From: Eledone cirrhosa
Lineage: Eukaryota
Direction of reading: 5' to 3'
DNA length: 64,000 nucleotides
Assembly (NCBI GenBank): GCA_964016885.1
Contig: OZ024750.1
Span: 35,960,001-36,024,000, forward strand
The notes beneath the pieces were generated by a model, which made no database searches, was not told the origin of the DNA, and worked only from the letters and a program-made list of their open reading frames with translations. The position numbers and the translations under genes were made by a program. This document shows, piece by piece, positions 4,150 through 55,820 of the stretch (within the stretch, counting starts at the first letter, position 1; the number at the start of each line of letters is the position of its first letter).

Positions 4150-4477
4150 ATGTTGTTACCATTGGCTTCAGTAAAGCTTTCATTCATGTATAACTGTTGC
4201 TTGTGGTGGTGATAGGATTAACAGCATCTTGTTGATCTAGTTGATCTTATCAATACTCCCTGGTCCGTGGCATGGAAGCTCCTATCTTGTGTGTGACTGT
4301 GGCATCGAACTACAGACTACACAGACTAAATATGCCCCCTACAGAGAATTGGACTTGGCAGAGTTTAATGAGACAGGACAGCAATATGTTCAGCTGTGGC
4401 GGAACCACATCTAGCCAAGCTCTGTAGCTGACACTCTTGTGGACACGATAAGGAGTCATATATAGTATAAGTTAAAT

Positions 4478-4778
4478 TGTATGTCTGTTTGTTTAGCCTG
4501 CCTTTTTGTCTGTCTGTCTGCACGTCTGTTGTCTGTCTGCCTGATTGTCTGTCTGCCACCCTGTCTGTCTGTGTGTCCGTATGTTCATCAGGTTGTCTGT
4601 CTGTAGAGTCTGCCTGCCTCTGTCAGTCTGTCTCCACGTCTGTCAGTCAGTCTGTCTGCCTATCTGTCAGTCAGTATGTCACTATGCCTGTCAGTCAGTA
4701 TGTCACTCTGCTTGTCAGTCAGTCTGTCACTCTGCCTGTCTGCCTGTCTGACTGATTGTCTGTCTGTCTGTCTGTCTG
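4478..4778. repeat. imperfect (TCTG/TCAG)n microsatellite that continues at 10393-10450
   Basis: Direct reading. The tract is split by the LINE insertion. Confidence 0.9.
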
Positions 4779-4952
4779 AGGATAGTAGACGTGTGTCATA
4801 TCGCTCTGTGATTTGGATTTTTACCTGCTAATTTTGTGAGTGGATTTTTTTGAATTATTTTGTATAATTAACTGTAACCCCTAGTCTGGGACTCTAGACG
4901 TCGGGTAAATATATTTTCACCCCTTTTGGGGTGAAAAATAAATATTTGAGAA

Positions 4953-6707
4953 ATGTTTATCGATATCGTTGATAACGATATCGTCGAAAACGATATCGCC
5001 ATATTGGAAGCGAACGCCACGCCGACCAAAAAAACAAGCGGGAAAGAGGGAACAACAGTTCAAACTGTTGAACAACCCCTCCTCTCCAATGAAAAAAAGA
5101 ATTTCAATTCAAATGAAAAAATTAATTTTGAAGAAAAAAATAGCACCACAAATAAGGAAACCAACAACATTACAACAACAAACAAAGACAAAATTTCTTT
5201 TGCCCAAACACTTAGGAGAGCCACGGAATACAAAGCCATTGACATCACGAACGCCAAGGAAAATTTGCTAGAGGCTAGAAAATACGTATCTTTTGGAGAG
5301 GATGGTTCTTTTACGATCAACTCCCCAGAAGAAGTGCGTGAACAGATTTACAAGAATACCGTAAGCTACAGAACCATAACCAACGAAACGAGAAAGCCAG
5401 CGCAATTGACCGAAAGTCAAATCGAGCTGGTTCTGAAAGAAATTAAAAATGACATACTCTTTATTCAAAGAGGAAAGCTGTATGCCAGCATTATGGTCCG
5501 AATGAAGGACGAAATGCTGGCTCAGAAATATTCGGTGGCACCTATAGTGTCACCACATTACACCTTCTTCCCCACATATAAAGGAAGAAGAACACAAAGG
5601 ATAAGAATGTGGAGCCCTACGCCAGAAATTAACATCTGGTCCGTCCTAACAGGATTTACCGACCTAGATAAGGACATACTAATTTCAGCAGGGGAGTCCA
5701 CCAGTGGACTGTTCGGGGGGAAAAGTCTGGAGGTTCTCTTACAGATGACACCTGAGAGAATCTCCGGAATACCCGACCGAGTGCTACTGGATGGGCGAAC
5801 CTACATAAATATCACAGTGGAAGGCAGGAGACCCTCATGTTACCACTGCGCTGGCAGAGGTCACCTGAGGACGGCCTGCCCTCTACTAACAACAAAAAAA
5901 CCACTGCTACAAACACCACAACAACAACAAAAACAACCAGCACCACCATCGCAAAAACAACAAAATACACTACCATCACCACCAGAACAACAAAAACCAA
6001 CAACACCACCACCACCACAACAACAACAACAACATCAACAACAACTCAAGAAAACAACCCAAAACACGGTCCCACCCAGCCCCACCCCACAGAACACAAA
6101 TACAAAAACAGTTCATACACAACCCGGAGATATACCCCTCCCCTCCAATACGGAAGAGGAGCTCATATCGTCGGAAGACGAGGGGGCTCCCTTCCAAAAA
6201 GTGAAAAGAAAAAAACGTACACACACCACAACAACAAAAATAACCCCACCTGACAACACAACACAGACAATAAAACGCAAACTCACTCAACAACAACAAG
6301 CAAAAACAAACACAACAACACAAAAACTCTACACATACATAAACAAAAACAATGAAAACCTAACTTTAAAAATAGAAACCAACCCTTCGATACAAACCGA
6401 AGGGCCGAATTTCGTAACGGCAATGGGGCTCCCTAACCTGAAAATGGTGAAAATCCCACTTGACATTTTTAAAACTTTAAAAGACATGTACCCTGAGGAC
6501 GTGGGCCCACCCTGCACCAGGCCACTCAACCGCGTCCTCCTGAAAGGTTTTCCCCTCCCCTCCTCAAACACCCACACAACTCCAAAGATCCCAACCCCTC
6601 CACACACCAATACCCCCACACCACCACAAACCACCACCCCACCCATCAACCCCGCCACCAGCCCCATGGAAACTGAGCGACCCGAACCCCGGGACGCAGA
6701 GAGGTAA
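4953..6707 (+). CDS. LINE ORF1 (gag-like nucleic-acid-binding protein), 584 aa
   Basis: CX2CX4HX4C zinc knuckle CYHCAGRGHLRTAC, Q/P/T-rich low-complexity C-terminal half, basic KVKRKKR patch. Sits 23 nt upstream of ORF2. Confidence 0.88.
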   Translation: MFIDIVDNDIVENDIAILEANATPTKKTSGKEGTTVQTVEQPLLSNEKKNFNSNEKINFEEKNSTTNKETNNITTTNKDKISFAQTLRRATEYKAIDITNAKENLLEARKYVSFGEDGSFTINSPEEVREQIYKNTVSYRTITNETRKPAQLTESQIELVLKEIKNDILFIQRGKLYASIMVRMKDEMLAQKYSVAPIVSPHYTFFPTYKGRRTQRIRMWSPTPEINIWSVLTGFTDLDKDILISAGESTSGLFGGKSLEVLLQMTPERISGIPDRVLLDGRTYINITVEGRRPSCYHCAGRGHLRTACPLLTTKKPLLQTPQQQQKQPAPPSQKQQNTLPSPPEQQKPTTPPPPQQQQQHQQQLKKTTQNTVPPSPTPQNTNTKTVHTQPGDIPLPSNTEEELISSEDEGAPFQKVKRKKRTHTTTTKITPPDNTTQTIKRKLTQQQQAKTNTTTQKLYTYINKNNENLTLKIETNPSIQTEGPNFVTAMGLPNLKMVKIPLDIFKTLKDMYPEDVGPPCTRPLNRVLLKGFPLPSSNTHTTPKIPTPPHTNTPTPPQTTTPPINPATSPMETERPEPRDAER

Positions 6708-6730
6708 GTGCCTCTTTCTTTGCCACCAAC

Positions 6731-9700
6731 ATGGCTGTCTTAAGAGTGGGTTGTCTAAATGCGCGTGGCCTGGGCTCACCTTGGAAGCAAGCTAAACTTC
6801 TAAGTGACCTCAGGTCACAATGTGTAAATGTGATGGTTATTTGCGAGGCCCGGATCAGCAGCATGCGACAGCTAACCCCCACCTTTGATGACTTTGAGAT
6901 GCACGCATCTCTCTGTCAGCCCGGAGGTGGGGGTGGGGTTGTCGTTCTGCTGCAAAAACATCTGGGTCTCGCTACACAGACGGTACACTTGGACCCGGAG
7001 GGTCGACTCGTGGTTCTGGACCTTGGCAATGGCGAAGGCGAAGCTTTTAGGCTTGTCGCCGTATACGCCCCTTTTGGGGCAATGCGGTCGGACTTCTTCC
7101 ATCGTCTGGAGACTTTTCTAGGGACGTCCCGCTCCTTGCTTTTAGTGGGGGACTGGAATGGTATCCTAGATGCACGTTGGGACTATGTAGGGGCATGTCC
7201 CGATAGAGGGGGGTGTAACAGCCTTAAGGGGTTAATCGGCCGATTCGACCTGGCCGATAGATACCGACTAGATTTTCCGACTGTACCAACCTGGACCTGG
7301 TCAAATAACAGTGGTCAATCTAGATCGTACCTAGATAGGTTCTTAGTTAGAATTAAGGATAGGGACTTTTTAAGTTGTCCAGAAATGCTCATGGTGGGCT
7401 ATTCAGACCACAAGTTAGTGACCTGCGTAGTCCACCTTGATAGAACGCATAGGCAGGGGCCCGGTTACTGGAAGCTCAACTTGTCCTTACCGGCAAGTAG
7501 AGCTTACAGGGACCGGATTAGAACCTTAGTTAAGGAGCAGTTGACGGGCGCCATCGTCAACAACAGGTGGTGGGGCTCTCTAAAAAGAGAGATTAGAGTA
7601 GTTTCAATAGGAGTTAGTAAGGAGTTAGCCTCAGATAGAAATAGGAAGGAAAGGGAGTTGGTAGTTAATGTTGAAGAGGCAATGAGAAGCGGCAACGTGG
7701 CCAGAGTGCAAGCGTCGAGAACGGTCTTGAACCAGTTCTTCGACGCGAAACACGAAGGCTGCGTTGTCCGAAGCAAAATACGTGCTCTGGGAAACGAGGG
7801 GACCAAAGCTGTTAGCTGGGCCCGCGTGACAGAAGCGAAAAGTGGGATTAAATCCACTATCCGGTCTTTGCGAGACCAGGATGGACGGCTGATCCTTGAA
7901 CCTAAGCAAATGTGCGAGGCCTTTCAAAGGCACTTTGCCCAATTGTTCGGGAGGGGCGGGGAGCCGGTTGGAGATGTGGATTTCGGTCCATACCTCGACG
8001 GCCTGCCGCGTCTTTCGGACAGGGAGGCGAGGTCCTGCGACGGGCCGATCTCAGCTGCTGAAATAGGGGACGTGCTGAGCCTATGCGGCAAACGCAAATC
8101 TCCAGGACTCGATGGTCTGCCCTACGAACTATATATTAATATGCCGGACTTGTTCCCCGATCTCCTCGAGGCGGTCTACTGCAACTGGCAACAGAACGGG
8201 AGAATTCCCTGTTCTGTGACCAAGGGCGTAGTCTCGCTAGTGAGGAAGGACGAGAACAAGGGGGATGACATTAGTAATTTTAGGCCCATAACTCTGCTAA
8301 ATGCAGAGTTAAAGATTTTGGCGAAGGTGTTAGCGAAGAGGTTGGCGCTTGTCGTGGGGGGCCTGGTGGGAGATGCGCAGACATGCGCTATCCCGTCCAG
8401 GTCCATCCACGACAACCTCCACCTCATGCGATACATCATAGAGAGGGTTGGGAACGAACCCGGCTTTGGTGGGGCCCTGATAAATTTAGATCAGTCTAAA
8501 GCGTTCGATAGGGTGGACCATGGTTACCTGGATGCGGTGCTAGCGGCGGCTGGGTTCGGACCCGTTTTCAGGGGCTGGATCACTGCCATGCACAGCAGCC
8601 GCATCTGCTCTAGAATCAAGGTGAACGGCTACCTTTCGGAGCCGTTCGAAATCACCCGCTCCATCCGACAGGGGTGCCCTCTCTCCTCCCTTCTGTATGT
8701 ATTGACTCTCGAGCCATTACTGCGGAAGTTGGAGTTGTTGCAGGGCATCCCTTTGGAACCGGGATTGCGCAAAGCGGTGTCGGCCTACGCCGATGACGTA
8801 ACAGTAATGGTGTCGACCGCCTCGGAAATCGAGGCAATCGGCACCTTACTAGAGGAGTACGAAAGGTTGACAGGGGCTAAGCTGAACCGGGACAAGTCAG
8901 TCGCTTTGCAACTCGGCGAGTGGAGGGGCAAAGCGATGTCGTGCGACGGTATCGTCGGACGGTGGACGGAGGGCCCGGTGAAGTTGCTTGGGGTCTGGTT
9001 CGGACCGGACCTCCAGGTGGAGAAAAACTGGGGTGAGGTGACGAATAGGGTGTTTGCACTAACCCAGAAGTGGGCCGAGTGCAAACTATCCCTAAAAGGT
9101 CGGGCGGAGGTGGCGAACGCTTACATAGCGTCCGTCATCTATTACCGCTTGACTGTCGTGCCTTGCCCGGGTGAGATCCTCGCCAAAATGGAGCGCGCCC
9201 TCTTTTATTTCCTTTGGAAGAAGAGGTCTCCTCTAGTGAGGAGATCCATCTGCTGTCAACACCCTTTGAAAGGAGGGCTGGGGATGCCGTGGCTAAAAAT
9301 GCGTAAACACGCATTGAGGCTAAGGCACCTCCACGTATTCCTCACCGGTCAACCGGTGTGGGCCCCGTTTGTGAGGCGAGCCTTCCCGAGGCTCGTCTCG
9401 CTCACCGAGCTGCAGTCCTGGGTGAAGCAAAGACCGAGAAAACTGGGCGACTGGCACACCGAGTGTGCCCAGGCGCTCACGGCTCTCTGGCAGGCGGACC
9501 CGGCTATCGACGGAGACTCCACCTCGTCATTCTATAGAGGGCTGGTGGTTAGCGGGTGCGACGACGCCCTTGGAGAAGCCCTAGGCATGGAGGAGGACGA
9601 ACTGGCCAGTCTATTCGGTAGGACTTTCGGCCCGGGACCTATGGACAACTTCCAGAAGTCCTTGGCCTGGCAGTGCTACCGAGGGGCTCTGCCCGTTCGG

Positions 9701-10168
9701 GATAAGCTCTACAGACACGGGCGCCCGGGTAGGGACCCCTCGAAAAAGATCTGTCCCAGATGCGTGCGCGACGAGGAAACCGTCGCGCACGCATTGGTGC
9801 ACTGCCCGGGCGTTGCCGATCTGTGGGGCTATGTCGAACAACTGCTGTCACGGGTGGGACCAATTAGGTTGACCACCGAGTCCATTGTAACGATCAAGCC
9901 GCCTCCCCCCTTCAAAAATGAAGGAGAGGCGGTCTTCCTCTGTGTAATAGCCATGGTAAAAGAGGCTATATGGTGGACGCGTCTGAAAGGGCTGAGGTCG
10001 GACACCTTTCTCTCCGGCCAACAACTGGTCCTTTTCTTCCGATACCATTTCGGAAGAAGGATCAGGATGGAGAGAGAGGTGCTCCACTCCAGCCAGTTTT
10101 ATGAAAGGTGGGTGAAAGTTGCGAGAATGGCCCGTGTGAATGGGCCTTCTCTCTACCTCAGCCTGTAG
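6731..10168 (+). CDS. LINE ORF2: APE endonuclease + reverse transcriptase + C-terminal zinc finger, 1145 aa
   Basis: APE motifs LNARGL, AVYAP, VGDWN, SYLDRF, SDHK. GPGYWKLN linker typical of Tx1/L1. RT motifs KSPGLDG, FRPITLLN, LDQSKAFDRV, RQGCPLS, YADD, LLGVWF. Zinc finger CPRC..EETVAHALVHC. No stops. Confidence 0.95.
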   Translation: MAVLRVGCLNARGLGSPWKQAKLLSDLRSQCVNVMVICEARISSMRQLTPTFDDFEMHASLCQPGGGGGVVVLLQKHLGLATQTVHLDPEGRLVVLDLGNGEGEAFRLVAVYAPFGAMRSDFFHRLETFLGTSRSLLLVGDWNGILDARWDYVGACPDRGGCNSLKGLIGRFDLADRYRLDFPTVPTWTWSNNSGQSRSYLDRFLVRIKDRDFLSCPEMLMVGYSDHKLVTCVVHLDRTHRQGPGYWKLNLSLPASRAYRDRIRTLVKEQLTGAIVNNRWWGSLKREIRVVSIGVSKELASDRNRKERELVVNVEEAMRSGNVARVQASRTVLNQFFDAKHEGCVVRSKIRALGNEGTKAVSWARVTEAKSGIKSTIRSLRDQDGRLILEPKQMCEAFQRHFAQLFGRGGEPVGDVDFGPYLDGLPRLSDREARSCDGPISAAEIGDVLSLCGKRKSPGLDGLPYELYINMPDLFPDLLEAVYCNWQQNGRIPCSVTKGVVSLVRKDENKGDDISNFRPITLLNAELKILAKVLAKRLALVVGGLVGDAQTCAIPSRSIHDNLHLMRYIIERVGNEPGFGGALINLDQSKAFDRVDHGYLDAVLAAAGFGPVFRGWITAMHSSRICSRIKVNGYLSEPFEITRSIRQGCPLSSLLYVLTLEPLLRKLELLQGIPLEPGLRKAVSAYADDVTVMVSTASEIEAIGTLLEEYERLTGAKLNRDKSVALQLGEWRGKAMSCDGIVGRWTEGPVKLLGVWFGPDLQVEKNWGEVTNRVFALTQKWAECKLSLKGRAEVANAYIASVIYYRLTVVPCPGEILAKMERALFYFLWKKRSPLVRRSICCQHPLKGGLGMPWLKMRKHALRLRHLHVFLTGQPVWAPFVRRAFPRLVSLTELQSWVKQRPRKLGDWHTECAQALTALWQADPAIDGDSTSSFYRGLVVSGCDDALGEALGMEEDELASLFGRTFGPGPMDNFQKSLAWQCYRGALPVRDKLYRHGRPGRDPSKKICPRCVRDEETVAHALVHCPGVADLWGYVEQLLSRVGPIRLTTESIVTIKPPPPFKNEGEAVFLCVIAMVKEAIWWTRLKGLRSDTFLSGQQLVLFFRYHFGRRIRMEREVLHSSQFYERWVKVARMARVNGPSLYLSL

Positions 10169-10660
10169 GTGGAACAGAAAGAAGGGAGCACCCTCTCTTT
10201 GTGCTCCCGTGGAGAAGGGTCGCACACTTTTTTTCGGGGGTGTGTGTGACCCCAAAACGATCCCTCCCTATTGAGGACCTTCTTGTTATTATTTTGTTTG
10301 TTATATTTTTCTTACTCGATTTTTATGTAAACTCCCCCCACCCATGTACATGTCCCTTTCTTTTGTGCCCTAGTGGCAAATAAACAGAAATTTGTCTGTC
10401 TGACTGTCTGTGTGTCAGTATGCCAGTCTGTCTGCCTGTCTGTCAGTCTGCAACTGGCAGAGTTTATTGTCACAAGAGAGATAACTTAACGATCCATTAT
10501 TGTTCCTTAACTCTCTACAGACAACTCTAATATACAAACAAATAGAGACCTTTAGGAACATTGACCTTGTACGACATGACATAATTACATGTCAAGCTGG
10601 CCAGCTACAGGCAGTTACCTACACATTCCTTTCCATATATATATCGTATATATATATATA

Positions 10661-35800: not shown

Positions 35801-37310
35801 TAATTTTTTCCTTAGTTCGTTATATATATATATAGTTAGAGAGAAATAAATAAATAACTACATATGTGCACTATATACAGTCGGTTCCCAACTGGATTAG
35901 AAAATCTCACCGTATATCAAAATATTGTAGAGAACTCATCCTTCTCTGCATTCTCATTCAAATGTCCACCATCTTTGTAAACATATCTTACATTGACAGT
36001 CATTAACTAGTTATGTGGTATCAACTATTATTATAAATGTATCTCACACTGCCAACAACTGACTCACTCACTAGTTACATCTATTCACCATCTTTGTAAA
36101 AGTTGAAATTCTGAACTTCAAAATTTTTATTTTGGTTTTGAACTCTATATTGGACATATATGCCTCCTGGCCCATCTGAGAGGTCAGTAGATCTGTTTGA
36201 GTACTGGTTCTGTCTGTGATGACCTGTCCAACCCTTGCTAGCAGGGAAAAATGGACATTAAATGATGAAGGTGATGATGATTAAGAGATATCTGAAGTAG
36301 GATGATAACCAAAAGAACAAAAATGTAGTAATGAAATGCAAAGTAGCCGAAAGAACTATGGTGATAAGGCTGTCGCTATGCAAAGAATGACATAAAATAT
36401 AATAGAATTGAACAGTAAAGACAGAAATGTCCCATTAATTGCAGATATAAAGACCACTGGGGGTTGACTGGTCGTCATAGCGTCTCATTTCTAGCTTTCA
36501 GCTAAAAACAGAAAGTACAAAAGTATCGAATCTTCTTCAAAATTACTTGTTACCAAAAACGCCTACTACAGAAATCAATGTATTTTGTTTGAAGATGAAA
36601 GGTGATAATTATTTGTGTCTTTTAGAAGGCTGCCAAGATTAACAAAAGAACTGGCGTTAACCCTTTTGTTACCATATTTTTAATGAAAGAATCGACCTAT
36701 AAAATTTCAAGTCATTTTGAAAATAACCAAGAATTTAGAGAGATTTTGCTACAATATTTCTAATAAAAGATTCTATCTATGACTGTAAAGATGTCTGGTG
36801 TCCTTAGATTCCCCAGTCCCTCACTACTTATTTCCACCACAAAATCAGAAAGAGGAAGGAGCCTCATAAGGTGGGGTGGTTGTCTCACTGGCTATTCTCT
36901 GTTGCGATATCTTCACCATTCTGTCTGTGGGGCTTGGCTGAATCACCACCCTGGCTGGGGTGTAGAGTCTATCCCTCCTTTGTTCTCTCCCTCCCTCCTT
37001 ACCTCTCTTAGTTTCCTTCATTGCTTCATTCTCTTTTTTCTTTTTTCTCTTTCATTTTTTTGCTTCATTGACTTTTACTCCCATTGATTTCTGTTTTGAA
37101 AATAAGCAGGAATTTGGAGAGTTCTGACAATATAACTAACAGTTTTACTATTAAAATAGTATTTGGAACATAACTTAACTAAGGTTCTAGCATAAAATTA
37201 TGATGTAAGGTTTTTAAAGAAATGTAAACATGTAAAAATGTAAAAATGTAAAAATGTAAAAATGTAAACAACTTTTTATGATATGACCAGGGGTGATTTT
37301 AGACAGATTG

Positions 37311-38558
37311 GTAATGTGAAGGCACGTGGCCGAGCGGTAATGTGAAGGCACGTGGCTAAGCGGTAATGTGAAGGCACGTGGCCTAGTGGTAATGTGAAGG
37401 CACGTGGCCTAGTGGTAATGTGAAGGCACGTGGCCTAGTGGTAATGTGAAGGCATGTGGCTGAGTGGTAATGGGAAGGCACGTGGCCAAGTGGTAATGTG
37501 AAGGCACGTGGCCGAGCGGTAATGTGAAGGCACGTGGCCGAGCGGTAATGTGAAGGCACGTGGCCGAGCGGTAATGTGAAGGCACGTGGCCGAGCGGTAA
37601 TGTGAAGGCACGTGGCCGAGCGGTAATGTGAAGGCATGTGGCCGAGCGGTAATGTGAAGGCACGTGGCCTAGCGGTAATGTGAAGGCACGTGGCCGAGTG
37701 GTAATGTGAAGGCACGTGGCCTAGTGGTAATGTGAAGGCACGTGGCCGAGTGGTAATGTGAAGGTACGTGGCCGAGTGGTAATGTGAAGGCACGTGGCCG
37801 AGTGGCAATGTGAAGGCACGTGGCCTAGTGGTAATGTGAAGGCACGTGGCCTAGTGGTAATGTGAAGGCACGTGGCCGAGTGGTAATGTGAAGGCACGTG
37901 GCCGAGTGGTAATGTGAAGGCACGTGGCCGAGTGGTAATGTGAAGGCACGTGGCCGAGTGGTAATGTGAAGGCACGTGGCCGAGTGGTAATGTGAAGGCA
38001 CGTGGCCTAGTGGTAATGTGAAGGCACGTGGCCTAGTGGTAATGTGAAGGCACGTGGCCGAGTGGTAATGTGAAGGCATGTGGCCGAGTGGTAATGTGAA
38101 GGCACGTGGCCTAGTGGTAATGTGAAGGCACGTGACCTAGTGGTAATGTGAAGTCACGTGGCCTAGTGGTAATGTGAAGGTGTATAGCCTAGTGGTAATG
38201 TGAAGGTACGTGGCCTAGTGGTAATGTGAAGGTGTATAGCCTAGTGGTAATGTGAAGGTACGTGGCCTAGTGGTAATGTGAAGGTGTATAGCCTAGTGGT
38301 AATGTGAAGGCACGTGACCTAGTGGTAATGTGAAGTCACGTGGCCTAGTGGTAATGTGAAGGTGTATAGCCTAGTGGTAATGTGAAGGTACGTGACCTAG
38401 TGGTAATGTGAAGTCACGTGGCCTAGTGGTAATGTGAAGGTGTATAGCCTAGTGGTAATGTGAAGGTACGTGGCCTAGTGGTAATGTGAAGGTGTATAGC
38501 CTAGTGGTAATGTGAAGGTACGTGGCCTAGTGGTAATGTGAAGGCACGTGGCCTAGTG
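37311..38558 (+). repeat. 26-bp tandem array, 48 units, derived from a SINE 5' end that includes the Pol III A box
   Basis: Unit GTAATGTGAAGGCACGTGGCC(G/T)AG(T/C)G. (38533-37311)/26 = 47 intervals. The last unit continues into the SINE body. Confidence 0.92.
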
Positions 38559-38790
38559 GTAAGGGTGTTGGATTTACGATCATAATGCCATGGGTTCAAT
38601 CCCTGGGCTGGGTTGCGTGTTGTGTTCTTGAGCAAAACACTTCATTTCACATTGTTCCAGTATAATCAGCTGAAAATGAGTACCAGCAATAGCTGGGGGT
38701 TTAACCCTGCGATGGACTGATGTCCTGCCCAGGGTGGGATCTTGTAATCTCTGTTGCTTCGTGGCATGAAATTGGGATAAGCACCGGCTC
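38542..38790 (+). mobile_element. tRNA-derived SINE related to group 2 but with a different tail
   Basis: A box TGGCCTAGTGG, B box GGTTCAATCC, TTCTTGAGCAAAACAC domain. Confidence 0.8.
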
Positions 38791-48226: not shown

Positions 48227-48336
48227 AAGTGTGTGGGAACAGAGTTCAAAAGGTGTGTAGGGGAGTGGTGGAGAGACATATAGCGAAAGGAAACGGTGCG
48301 CGCCAATGACATGTCGAATTCTGCGACGCCAATGAC

Positions 48337-49224
48337 ATGTCGATATGTAACACAAACTTTAAAAAACCCGACAACCACCTGATCACCTATAGATCAGGGG
48401 AGCACTCTAGTCAGTTAGATTTTATCCTCATCAGAGGACGTGACAGATGGACGGTCGTAAACACAAAAGCCTTCCCTAGTGAGGAATGTACATCCCAACA
48501 TAGCTTAGTTGTCAGCGACCTCACGGTCAGAACTAGACGAGCCCTGAAACAGAGGCCAACCTGGAGAAGAAAGATCTGGAAGCTGAAAGTCCCCTCAACC
48601 AGTAACAGATTTAAAGATATTTTACTCAATGCCTACGACAGTAAAGAAGAACAGATAGAGACATTTAACGTAGAAGAGAACTGGGAGTTCCTAAAAAATA
48701 ACTTACTAGAGGCGACGGATGAGGTTTGTGGCTGGAGTAAGACCTCAAGCAGGAGGAGAGTGACTTGGTGGTGGAACAATAAGGTAGATGAAGCAGTCAA
48801 GGCCAAGAGACAGGCATGGAAAGAATGGAAGAACGGGGGGAGCAGGGTACATTACATAGAGACCAAGAGGGAAGCTAGGCGACAAGTATACTTAGCTAGG
48901 AGGGAAGCAGAGGATAGAAAATTCAAGCATGTTTTACAACGTGAGGACCAGAAACAGGAGGTATTCAAGATTGCGAGGCAGTGTGTCAGAGATAGTTGTG
49001 ATGTCATTGGAGAGAAGTGTATCCGGAATGATAAAGGTGAGCTTGCCCTCACAAGTGCTGAGGGAGTGGGGAGACCCAAGATGACTTGGGATGAGGTGAT
49101 AAAAGCTGACCTTACCCAACTACACCTCTCAAAGTCAATGACACACGACCGTGACTTCTGGCGTCACGCAGTAATACAGGGTACCCGACCTCCCATGGGT
49201 ACATGCTGAAGCATATAAACAATA

Positions 49225-54485: not shown

Positions 54486-54639
54486 TTTGTCTTTTCATCC
54501 ATCTTTGTTACACATGCTTTTGTTAGAATATGAACACTTTACTATATAAACAGTCAGTAAATGATATTTACATTCGTCAATTTACATAGTTAGAATGTCT
54601 CAGGAAAGAATTGGAAAGATTTGTAGCTTGGAGATCAAA

Positions 54640-55820
54640 GAGTCACTCCTGGTAGAGCCACTACTTCTTCAAATTGAGAGATCACAGCTCTGATACTATG
54701 GACATGTGGTTAGAATGTCTCAGGAAAGAATCACTGGAGAGTCACTCCTGGTAGAGCCACTACTTCTTCAAATTGAGAGATCACAGCTCTGATACTATGG
54801 ACATGTGGTTAGAATGTCTCAGGAAAGAATCACTGGAGAGTCACTCCTGGTAGAGCCACTACTTCTTCAAATTGAGAGATCACTGCTCTGATACTATGGA
54901 CATGTGGTTAGAATGTCTCAGGAAAGAATCACTGGAGAGTCACTCCTGGTAGAGCCACTACTTCTTCAAATTGAGAGATCACAGCTCTGATACTATGGAC
55001 ATGTGGTTAGAATGTCTCAGGAAAGAATCACTGGAGAGTCACTCCTGGTAGAGCCACTACTTCTTCAAATTGAGAGATCACTGCTCTGATACTATGGACA
55101 TGTGGTTAGAATGTCTCAGGAAAGAATCACTGGAGAGTCACTCCTGGTAGAGCCACTACTTCTTCAAATTGAGAGATCACAGCTCTGATACTATGGACAT
55201 GTGGTTAGAATGTCTCAGGAAAGAATCACTGGAGAGTCACTCCTGGTAGAGCCACTACTTCTTCAAATTGAGAGATCACTGCTCTGATACTATGGACATG
55301 TGGTTAGAATGTCTCAGGAAAGAATCACTGGAGAGTCACTCCTGGTAGAGCCACTACTTCTTCAAATTGAGAGATCACAGCTCTGATACTATGGACATGT
55401 GGTTAGAATGTCTCAGGAAAGAATCACTGGAGAGTCACTCCTGGTAGAGCCACTACTTCTTCAAATTGAGAGATCACTGCTCTGATACTATGGACATGTG
55501 GTTAGAATGTCTCAGGAAAGAATCACTGGAGAGTCACTCCTGGTAGAGCCACTACTTCTTCAAATTGAGAGATCACTGCTCTGATACTATGGACATGTGG
55601 TTAGAATGTCTCAGGAAAGAATCACTGGAGAGTCACTCCTGGTAGAGCCACTACTTCTTCAAATTGAGAGATCACTGCTCTGATACTATGGACATGTGGT
55701 TAGAATGTCTCAGGAAAGAATCACTGGAGAGTCACTCCTGGTAGAGCCACTAATTCTCCTAATTGAGAGATCACTGCTCTGATACTATGGACATGTGGTT
55801 AGAATGTCTCAGGAAAGAAT
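54640..55820 (+). repeat. 99-bp tandem array, 12 units, derived from RTE LINE coding sequence
   Basis: Period 99 (54640, 54739 ... 55729). The unit translates ESLLVEPLLLQIERSQL*YYGHVVRMSQERITG, a decayed RTE 'QLRWYGHV.RM' region. The last unit continues into an RTE-like 3' end. Confidence 0.9.

Follow-up and report, generated by a model that had tools for sequence, protein, structure and literature searches.

Several long interspersed elements (LINEs) are known to insert into microsatellites. Kibi and Koshi of teleosts use (TC)n and (TTC)n, respectively, and Tx1 families of crocodilians use (TTCC)n or (TTTC)n (PMC4494074). A review gives ACAY, AC, TC, TTC and TAA as known targets and describes microsatellite targeting as not well understood (PMC3812793). 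We analysed an element of the octopod Eledone cirrhosa that lies in a stretch of 64,000 nucleotides (assembly GCA_964016885.1, contig OZ024750.1, positions 35,960,001 to 36,024,000 of the forward strand), called the window throughout. Like the described systems, it is a LINE with two open reading frames (ORFs) and an apurinic/apyrimidinic endonuclease (APE), and it sits in a pyrimidine-rich microsatellite strand containing TC. It is set apart by its target, which is TCTG (TCTA in its sister families) and not (TC)n, (TTC)n, (TTCC)n or (TTTC)n, by its octopod host, and by a one-base target switch between close lineages that is visible in one genome. The family is almost certainly target-specific for TCTG-type repeats, and it arose from a large TCTA-targeting radiation by this switch. 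No Tx1 element targeting TCTG or TCTA was found in the open literature; Repbase, Dfam and figures S3-S5 of PMC4494074 may list such targets.

The 3.0 Gb genome was searched with an exact 23-nt pattern of the 3' end, which gave 211 matches (284 with a shorter pattern). We examined 80 of the 211, taken from the start of the genome in their order along it, which comprise all those of C1-C3 and two of C4; since they were taken in this order, they were unselected for their flanks. Taking the base right after GAAA as junction position 1, we obtained the consensus T-T-T-G-T-C-T-G-T for the 80 junctions, with frequencies of 99, 81, 91, 89, 100, 96, 99, 85 and 93%. Each base of the TCT at positions 5-7 was present in 96-100% of the copies; the chance level, measured as (T/A)GTCT at the same register, was 0.2% of the window positions. 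The 80 ends represent 54 loci. When one end was counted per locus, G was found at position 8 in 45 of the 54, and TCTA at positions 5-8 was still used in four. The first TCTx past the junction was TCTG in 68 copies and TCTC in four, and none of the 80 junctions had a run of A after GAAA. On the 5' side, GTCT was present within the last 12 upstream nucleotides of all 66 full-length copies. Among eight simply truncated copies, five had a TCTG/CCTG repeat upstream and three a non-repeat 5' flank. Target-site duplications of about 11-18 nt could be anchored at L061, L064, L069, L101, L103, L118 and L126; within pure repeat their limits cannot be drawn, and under the rule applied no match of at least 7 nt was obtained for 26 of the 80 copies. 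Because the flanks are locus-specific degenerate satellites common to both sides of the element, the repeat existed before the insertion. The share of flanks with the target exceeds the 20% that PMC4494074 takes as the mark of a target preference. The original prediction, made from the sequence alone, had proposed TCTG specificity with random 5' flanks as the contrary outcome, and the tabulated flanks bear it out. Three copies of the TCTG lineage (L283, L108 and L124) were found in or beside (CCTG)n, where the first base of the unit appears to be read loosely away from the junction.

Related 3' ends belong to four much larger families with 10,040, 3,489, 1,565 and 925 matches. We sampled the first 30, 25 and 25 listed ends of the three largest (n = 80). 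Among these 80 sister junctions, 65 had A at position 8 and 4 had G, as against G at 45 of 54 loci of the TCTG family (Fisher p 4e-23). The 925-match family, to which a copy upstream of L100 belongs, had been a candidate for a second TCTG family and was rejected, as TCTA was found in 22 of its 24 tabulated ends. Tracts of (TCTG)4 start at 5363 places in the genome and tracts of (TCTA)4 at 16,332, from which 25% G is expected; since both preferences depart from this value, neither reflects mere availability. The closest sisters share 85-89% identity with the TCTG family in ORF2 and about 50% in ORF1. In a protein tree of 29 TCTG and 23 TCTA copies, all TCTG copies grouped into a single clade (support 0.80) that lies within the TCTA lineages. 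Neither the origin in a TCTA radiation nor the head-to-tail arrays described below had been part of the original prediction. L277 was tested as a chimera with a TCTG-type end and rejected, since over its whole length it belongs to the L226 sister family. Recurrent, unrelated-looking sequences follow right after a TCTA or TTA tract at three sets of ends (L156, L168, L200 and L205; L157 and L199; L159 and L207), and they are probably the 5' ends of further repeat-targeting families. The divergent relative L159 (C1:17006100; 72%) carries (TTA)n past its A-type 3' end and may represent yet another variant of the target.

The locus in the window has the following parts, all on the + strand.

4507 to 4755, +: upstream target, a degenerate TCTG/TCAG satellite older than the insertion, as seen from the Tandem Repeats Finder (TRF) array at 4507-4778 and the empty allele

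4756 to 4766, +: 5' copy of the target-site duplication, 11 nt, TTGTCTGTCTG, identical to 10392-10402

4767 to 4778, +: three extra TCTG units that, judged from contig size, are absent from the empty allele

4779 to 4952, +: 5' untranslated region (UTR), with a 5' boundary common to 66 of the 80 copies

4953 to 6707, +: ORF1, 584 amino acids, an open frame with a CX2CX4HX4C knuckle at 5838-5879 and a low-complexity middle rich in P, Q and T

6731 to 10168, +: ORF2, 1145 amino acids, with the APE endonuclease at about residues 1-235, the reverse transcriptase (RT) at 512-756 and a C-terminal CX2CX8HX4C finger

10169 to 10391, +: 3' UTR with AATAAA at 10379-10384, terminating in CAGAAAT; this end is common to 211 copies

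10392 to 10402, +: 3' copy of the duplicated target; the empty-allele contigs of runs X1 and X2 resume their match to the window exactly at 10392

10403 to 10450, +: downstream degenerate satellite, with the local variant GTCAGTATG in common with the upstream part

TRF detected degenerate TGTC arrays on both sides of the element (4507-4778 and 10393-10450). The target tract is a degenerate, locus-specific satellite and not pure (TCTG)n; the element had been predicted to lie within (TCTG)n, which was right for the TCTG-type repeat on both sides and wrong for its purity. In sample S1, the empty and the filled allele of the locus are both present. A 644-nt contig of run X1 aligns to 4397-4712 and, after 43 further letters, to 10392-10676; a similar contig of X2 also shows the empty allele, and a contig of X3 crosses from the end of the element into the flank and represents the filled allele. 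Because X1-X3 derive from one sample, possibly the source of the assembly, these are two alleles and not a second individual. The upstream satellite of the empty allele reaches 4712 by alignment and 4755 by length. The 43 unaligned letters equal 4713-4755 in number, and from this we inferred the 5' boundary of the duplication at 4756, an 11-nt duplication at 4756-4766 and 12 extra bases at 4767-4778. These 12 bases probably came in with the insertion and are likely an RNA-carried leader or a product of slippage. By the empty allele, the last inserted base is 10391, one base short of the predicted end. Restriction-site associated DNA (RAD) reads of X13 gave no joint across the element and X4 had no cover at the 3' junction, so they are evidence neither way. 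In organism B (X5), the 5' UTR and the early part of ORF1 were covered at a depth of 5-8, compared with 585-2087 in X1, and contigs of this kind cannot prove absence.

The element spans 4779-10391 with both ORFs open. ORF1 had no match in Pfam and was about 40-55% identical to the ORF1s of the sisters. In ORF2, Pfam found Exo_endo_phos, RVT_1 and zf-RVT, the last just below threshold (26.3 bits with a cut-off of 27.5) with the finger motif visible, and no match to an RNase H family. The residues E39, D141, N143, D202, D226, H227 and D689 of ORF2 were invariant across 75 aligned relatives, as expected from the predicted open frames with their catalytic motifs. The structure predicted for ORF2 had a predicted local distance difference test score (pLDDT) of 89.9, and its best fold match was human L1 ORF2p (PDB 9k6i, 8uw3 and 9hdr), which it matched over the whole length (E 8.8e-56) at 17-18% identity. 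A fold of the endonuclease from its single sequence was uninformative (pLDDT 33). The features of the L1 group are present: two ORFs, a zinc knuckle in ORF1, APE followed by RT, a CCHC finger and target-site duplications. The element is an L1-type, two-ORF APE LINE, and it likely belongs to the Tx1 clade. Among the RT matches listed, none was named Tx1, and the closest named relative was a hypothetical protein of Argonauta hians (68%). With human L1 ORF2p it shares the domain order and the whole-length fold. Human L1 has a poly(A) tail and a loose T-tract target, and its copies are mostly truncated. Unlike it, the TCTG element is tailless, inserts at a fixed register and is full length to the 5' end in 66 of 80 copies. 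As predicted, the copy in the window has no poly(A) at its 3' end, where AATAAA is followed by CAGAAAT and the repeat.

The family is young and recently mobile, as had been proposed. Its tree is ladder-like, from about 6% divergence down to 7-16 substitutions in 5156 columns between the nearest copies, and the window copy differs from its nearest relative by 11 substitutions. The 211 exact 3' ends and the two alleles in one sample point in the same direction. An ORF2 of at least 1100 amino acids together with an ORF1 of at least 500 was retained in 29 of 67 full copies, the window copy counted, and the ORF2 codon variants in common comprised 50 synonymous and 34 non-synonymous ones.

How G is chosen over A was then considered. 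With no more than moderate confidence, we favour an explanation in which the endonuclease nick is common to both lineages and the repeat letters on a tailless RNA make the choice. It builds on what the junctions show: the register is constant, the repeats are older than the insertions, the duplications are short and poly(A) is absent. The endonuclease would nick the purine-rich strand (the 5'-ACAGA-3' side) within about 2-4 nt of junction position 5. RNA processing downstream of AATAAA may leave UUUG and some UCUG units, which would pair with the freed target end; the RT would then start inside the hybrid, so that poly(A) would stay uncopied. Transcripts would start slightly upstream, within the repeat, which is in part seen in the copies, and such a repeat leader would aid 5' joining and explain the many full-length copies. 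Every insertion regenerates a target and leads to the head-to-tail pile-up that is found, and arrays also grow by local duplication. The switch may go back to a TCTA-type ancestor that inserted into a TCTG tract and from there served as the donor. In such annealing the family would resemble SART1Bm and R1Bm, which are site-specific APE elements in which the 3' letters of the RNA pair with the target at the nick, and R1Bm is reported to require downstream target on its RNA (PMC7265360). These are elements of the R1 clade that target a telomere repeat and 28S rDNA, respectively, and SART1 inserts poly(A). In the accessible part of that paper, pairing sets the accuracy of insertion and is not reported to choose between targets.

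Several copies show junction letters that are shifted toward TTTG compared with their duplicated target, which was TCTA in L126, TCAG in L085, TCTG in L061, L103 and L064, and TGTG in L101. The L226/L277 sister is nearly identical to the TCTG family over its last 35-40 nt up to TTT, yet has a TCTA target, so it is with the flank that the two begin to differ. RNA is typically cleaved 10-30 nt past AATAAA, and the cleavage would therefore fall in the flank. For the leader, a 16-nt upstream variant was common to L056 (C22) and L075 (C1), two copies that are 2 substitutions apart in 1077 columns, and a TCTC variant stood at a fixed upstream place in 10 of 73 copies.

A number of observations weigh against a choice by the RNA. 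L069, L090 and L093 retain the target's own letters at positions 2-4, and L114 goes the opposite way, with G in the target and A at the junction. Junction variants were not inherited in the 92 of 101 copies used for this test (nearest-neighbour concordance of C at position 2 of 0.21 against 0.12, p 0.20). Since target letters can be kept and variants are not inherited, any overwriting by the RNA must be short and variable. The leader test was biased to young copies, as 15 extra copies were picked for top identity to the window, and the read-through of the RNA beyond the end of the element is itself something that we infer. The TCTG clade has a support of only 0.80, and the tree is weakened because sister copies are mosaic. 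Over the first 600 bases of ORF2, L221 matches L223 at 97-99% identity, and from about base 900 on it matches L225 at 98-99% (all three on C1), which points to recombination between families. Further points come from the protein. On the TCTG stem, 24 positions of ORF2 are near-fixed, six of them in the endonuclease (31, 104, 118, 124, 208 and 235), and the Tx1L endonuclease is sequence-specific in vitro, where it nicks almost only its own site (PMC1950540).

These last points favour the strongest alternative, that the ORF2 protein has changed and the endonuclease or another surface of ORF2 reads G for A, with RNA pairing only setting the start of reverse transcription. We take it as a real possibility, short of the probable. 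It would fit a single switch on the tree that has been stable over about 10% divergence, the lack of heritable junction variants in our sample, and the major role that endonuclease cleavage is believed to play (PMC3812793). The endonuclease has a loop that aligns with the L1 hairpin, and such a hairpin loop is important in target choice (PMC1950540). Residue 193 of this loop looked diagnostic at first, being N in 66 of 67 full copies (with one gap) and either R or H in all 14 sisters. When 29 further ends from a looser 3' pattern were added, N193 failed as the switch: 13 older TCTG copies have H193, and 11 of these 13 have G at position 8. The loop TWTWTNHSGQSRS was found in older TCTG copies as well as in the TCTA copy L232, so this loop does not follow the target. 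We also picked 29 positions of the endonuclease as likely DNA-facing, guided by one alignment with L1, and none of these separates 28 TCTG from 23 TCTA copies. None of the six near-fixed endonuclease differences is among the 29, and the TCTG-type residues at 118, 124 and 208 also occur in the TCTA copies L221/L223. The continued use of TCTA at positions 5-8 in four loci likewise speaks against a changed protein. Returning to the choice by RNA letters, its fullest form, in which the target moved from TCTA to TCTG purely through the letters of the RNA flank while the specificity of the endonuclease stayed unchanged, would make the element self-perpetuating, RNA-steered and reprogrammable through a few bases at both RNA ends; this stronger version seems to us rather doubtful.

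Head-to-tail arrays contain 37 of the 80 ends, in 11 arrays of 2-9 copies each. Some members are local duplicates: L112 and L113 are identical, L135 and L137 differ by 1 substitution, and L088 and L089 by 3. Other members have their closest relative elsewhere (L109-L097 with 7, L073-L114 with 10 and L130-L096 with 11 substitutions). Because both kinds occur, the arrays were built by repeated insertion as well as by duplication. The arrays and near-identical copies could suggest that the pattern reflects local duplication, survival only in repeats or assembly artefacts, which we consider very improbable, since 43 of the 54 loci are single copies on many contigs, array members are often nearest to copies elsewhere, the register is fixed to the base, and independent read contigs show both alleles. 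Hardly any credence is left for the idea that the element makes the repeats itself, by an encoded tail and a leader, with no real target preference: some copies do bring in junction positions 1-4 and as many as 12-16 upstream bases with the element and three of the eight truncated copies have non-repeat 5' flanks, but the empty allele already has the satellite on both sides, which largely refutes it at this locus, long locus-specific flank variants are common to both sides of a copy, and five of the eight truncated copies have TCTG/CCTG upstream although they lack a leader.

Two copies, L064 (C1:60614975) and L083 (C2:7399336), were inserted 6-10 nt upstream of the 5' end of an older copy, and the 12-nt duplication of L064 takes in the first two bases of that copy. 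At C1:50278700-50297600 (L231, L232 and L237) and at L224, different TCTA families alternate in mixed head-to-tail arrays, and very short 3'-end fragments are stacked with TCTA units between one fragment and the next.

The other elements in the window are decayed or truncated, as predicted, and their remaining ORFs are fragments of at most 299 codons. The longest, at 48310-49206 with 299 codons, we take to be an RTE-like endonuclease piece. Presumably, 1957-2316 holds a Penelope-like RT piece, and 15182-15823 and 17012-17383 form what we assume to be an inverted pair with a GIY-YIG-like ending. Twelve 99-bp tandem units that are 99% alike lie at 54639-55820; the reading of the unit resembles, as we suppose, a C-terminal piece of an RTE-type ORF. 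A 26-bp minisatellite of 48 copies lies at 37309-38562, and its unit resembles the head of a repeat at about 10663 that is like a short interspersed element.

In Octopus vulgaris, 80 L1-Tx1 families have been described, 13 of them recently active (PMC13282606), and these probably include relatives of the TCTG family; in the text and supplement of that paper, as accessible, the word 'target' is absent. Another paper on octopus LINEs deals with RTE and Dong elements (PMC9115989). In E. cirrhosa, two lineages with intact ORFs and 85-89% identity in ORF2 differ by one base of their target within one genome, which makes a direct exchange of protein and RNA ends between them feasible. If the choice does lie with the RNA, the element would be a compact, mostly full-length integrator of the L1 type that is steerable by a few bases. 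For the genome of this octopod, the family is a source of polymorphic insertions of 5.6 kb at tetranucleotide repeats, where markers would then show null alleles, and its arrays reach tens of kilobases.

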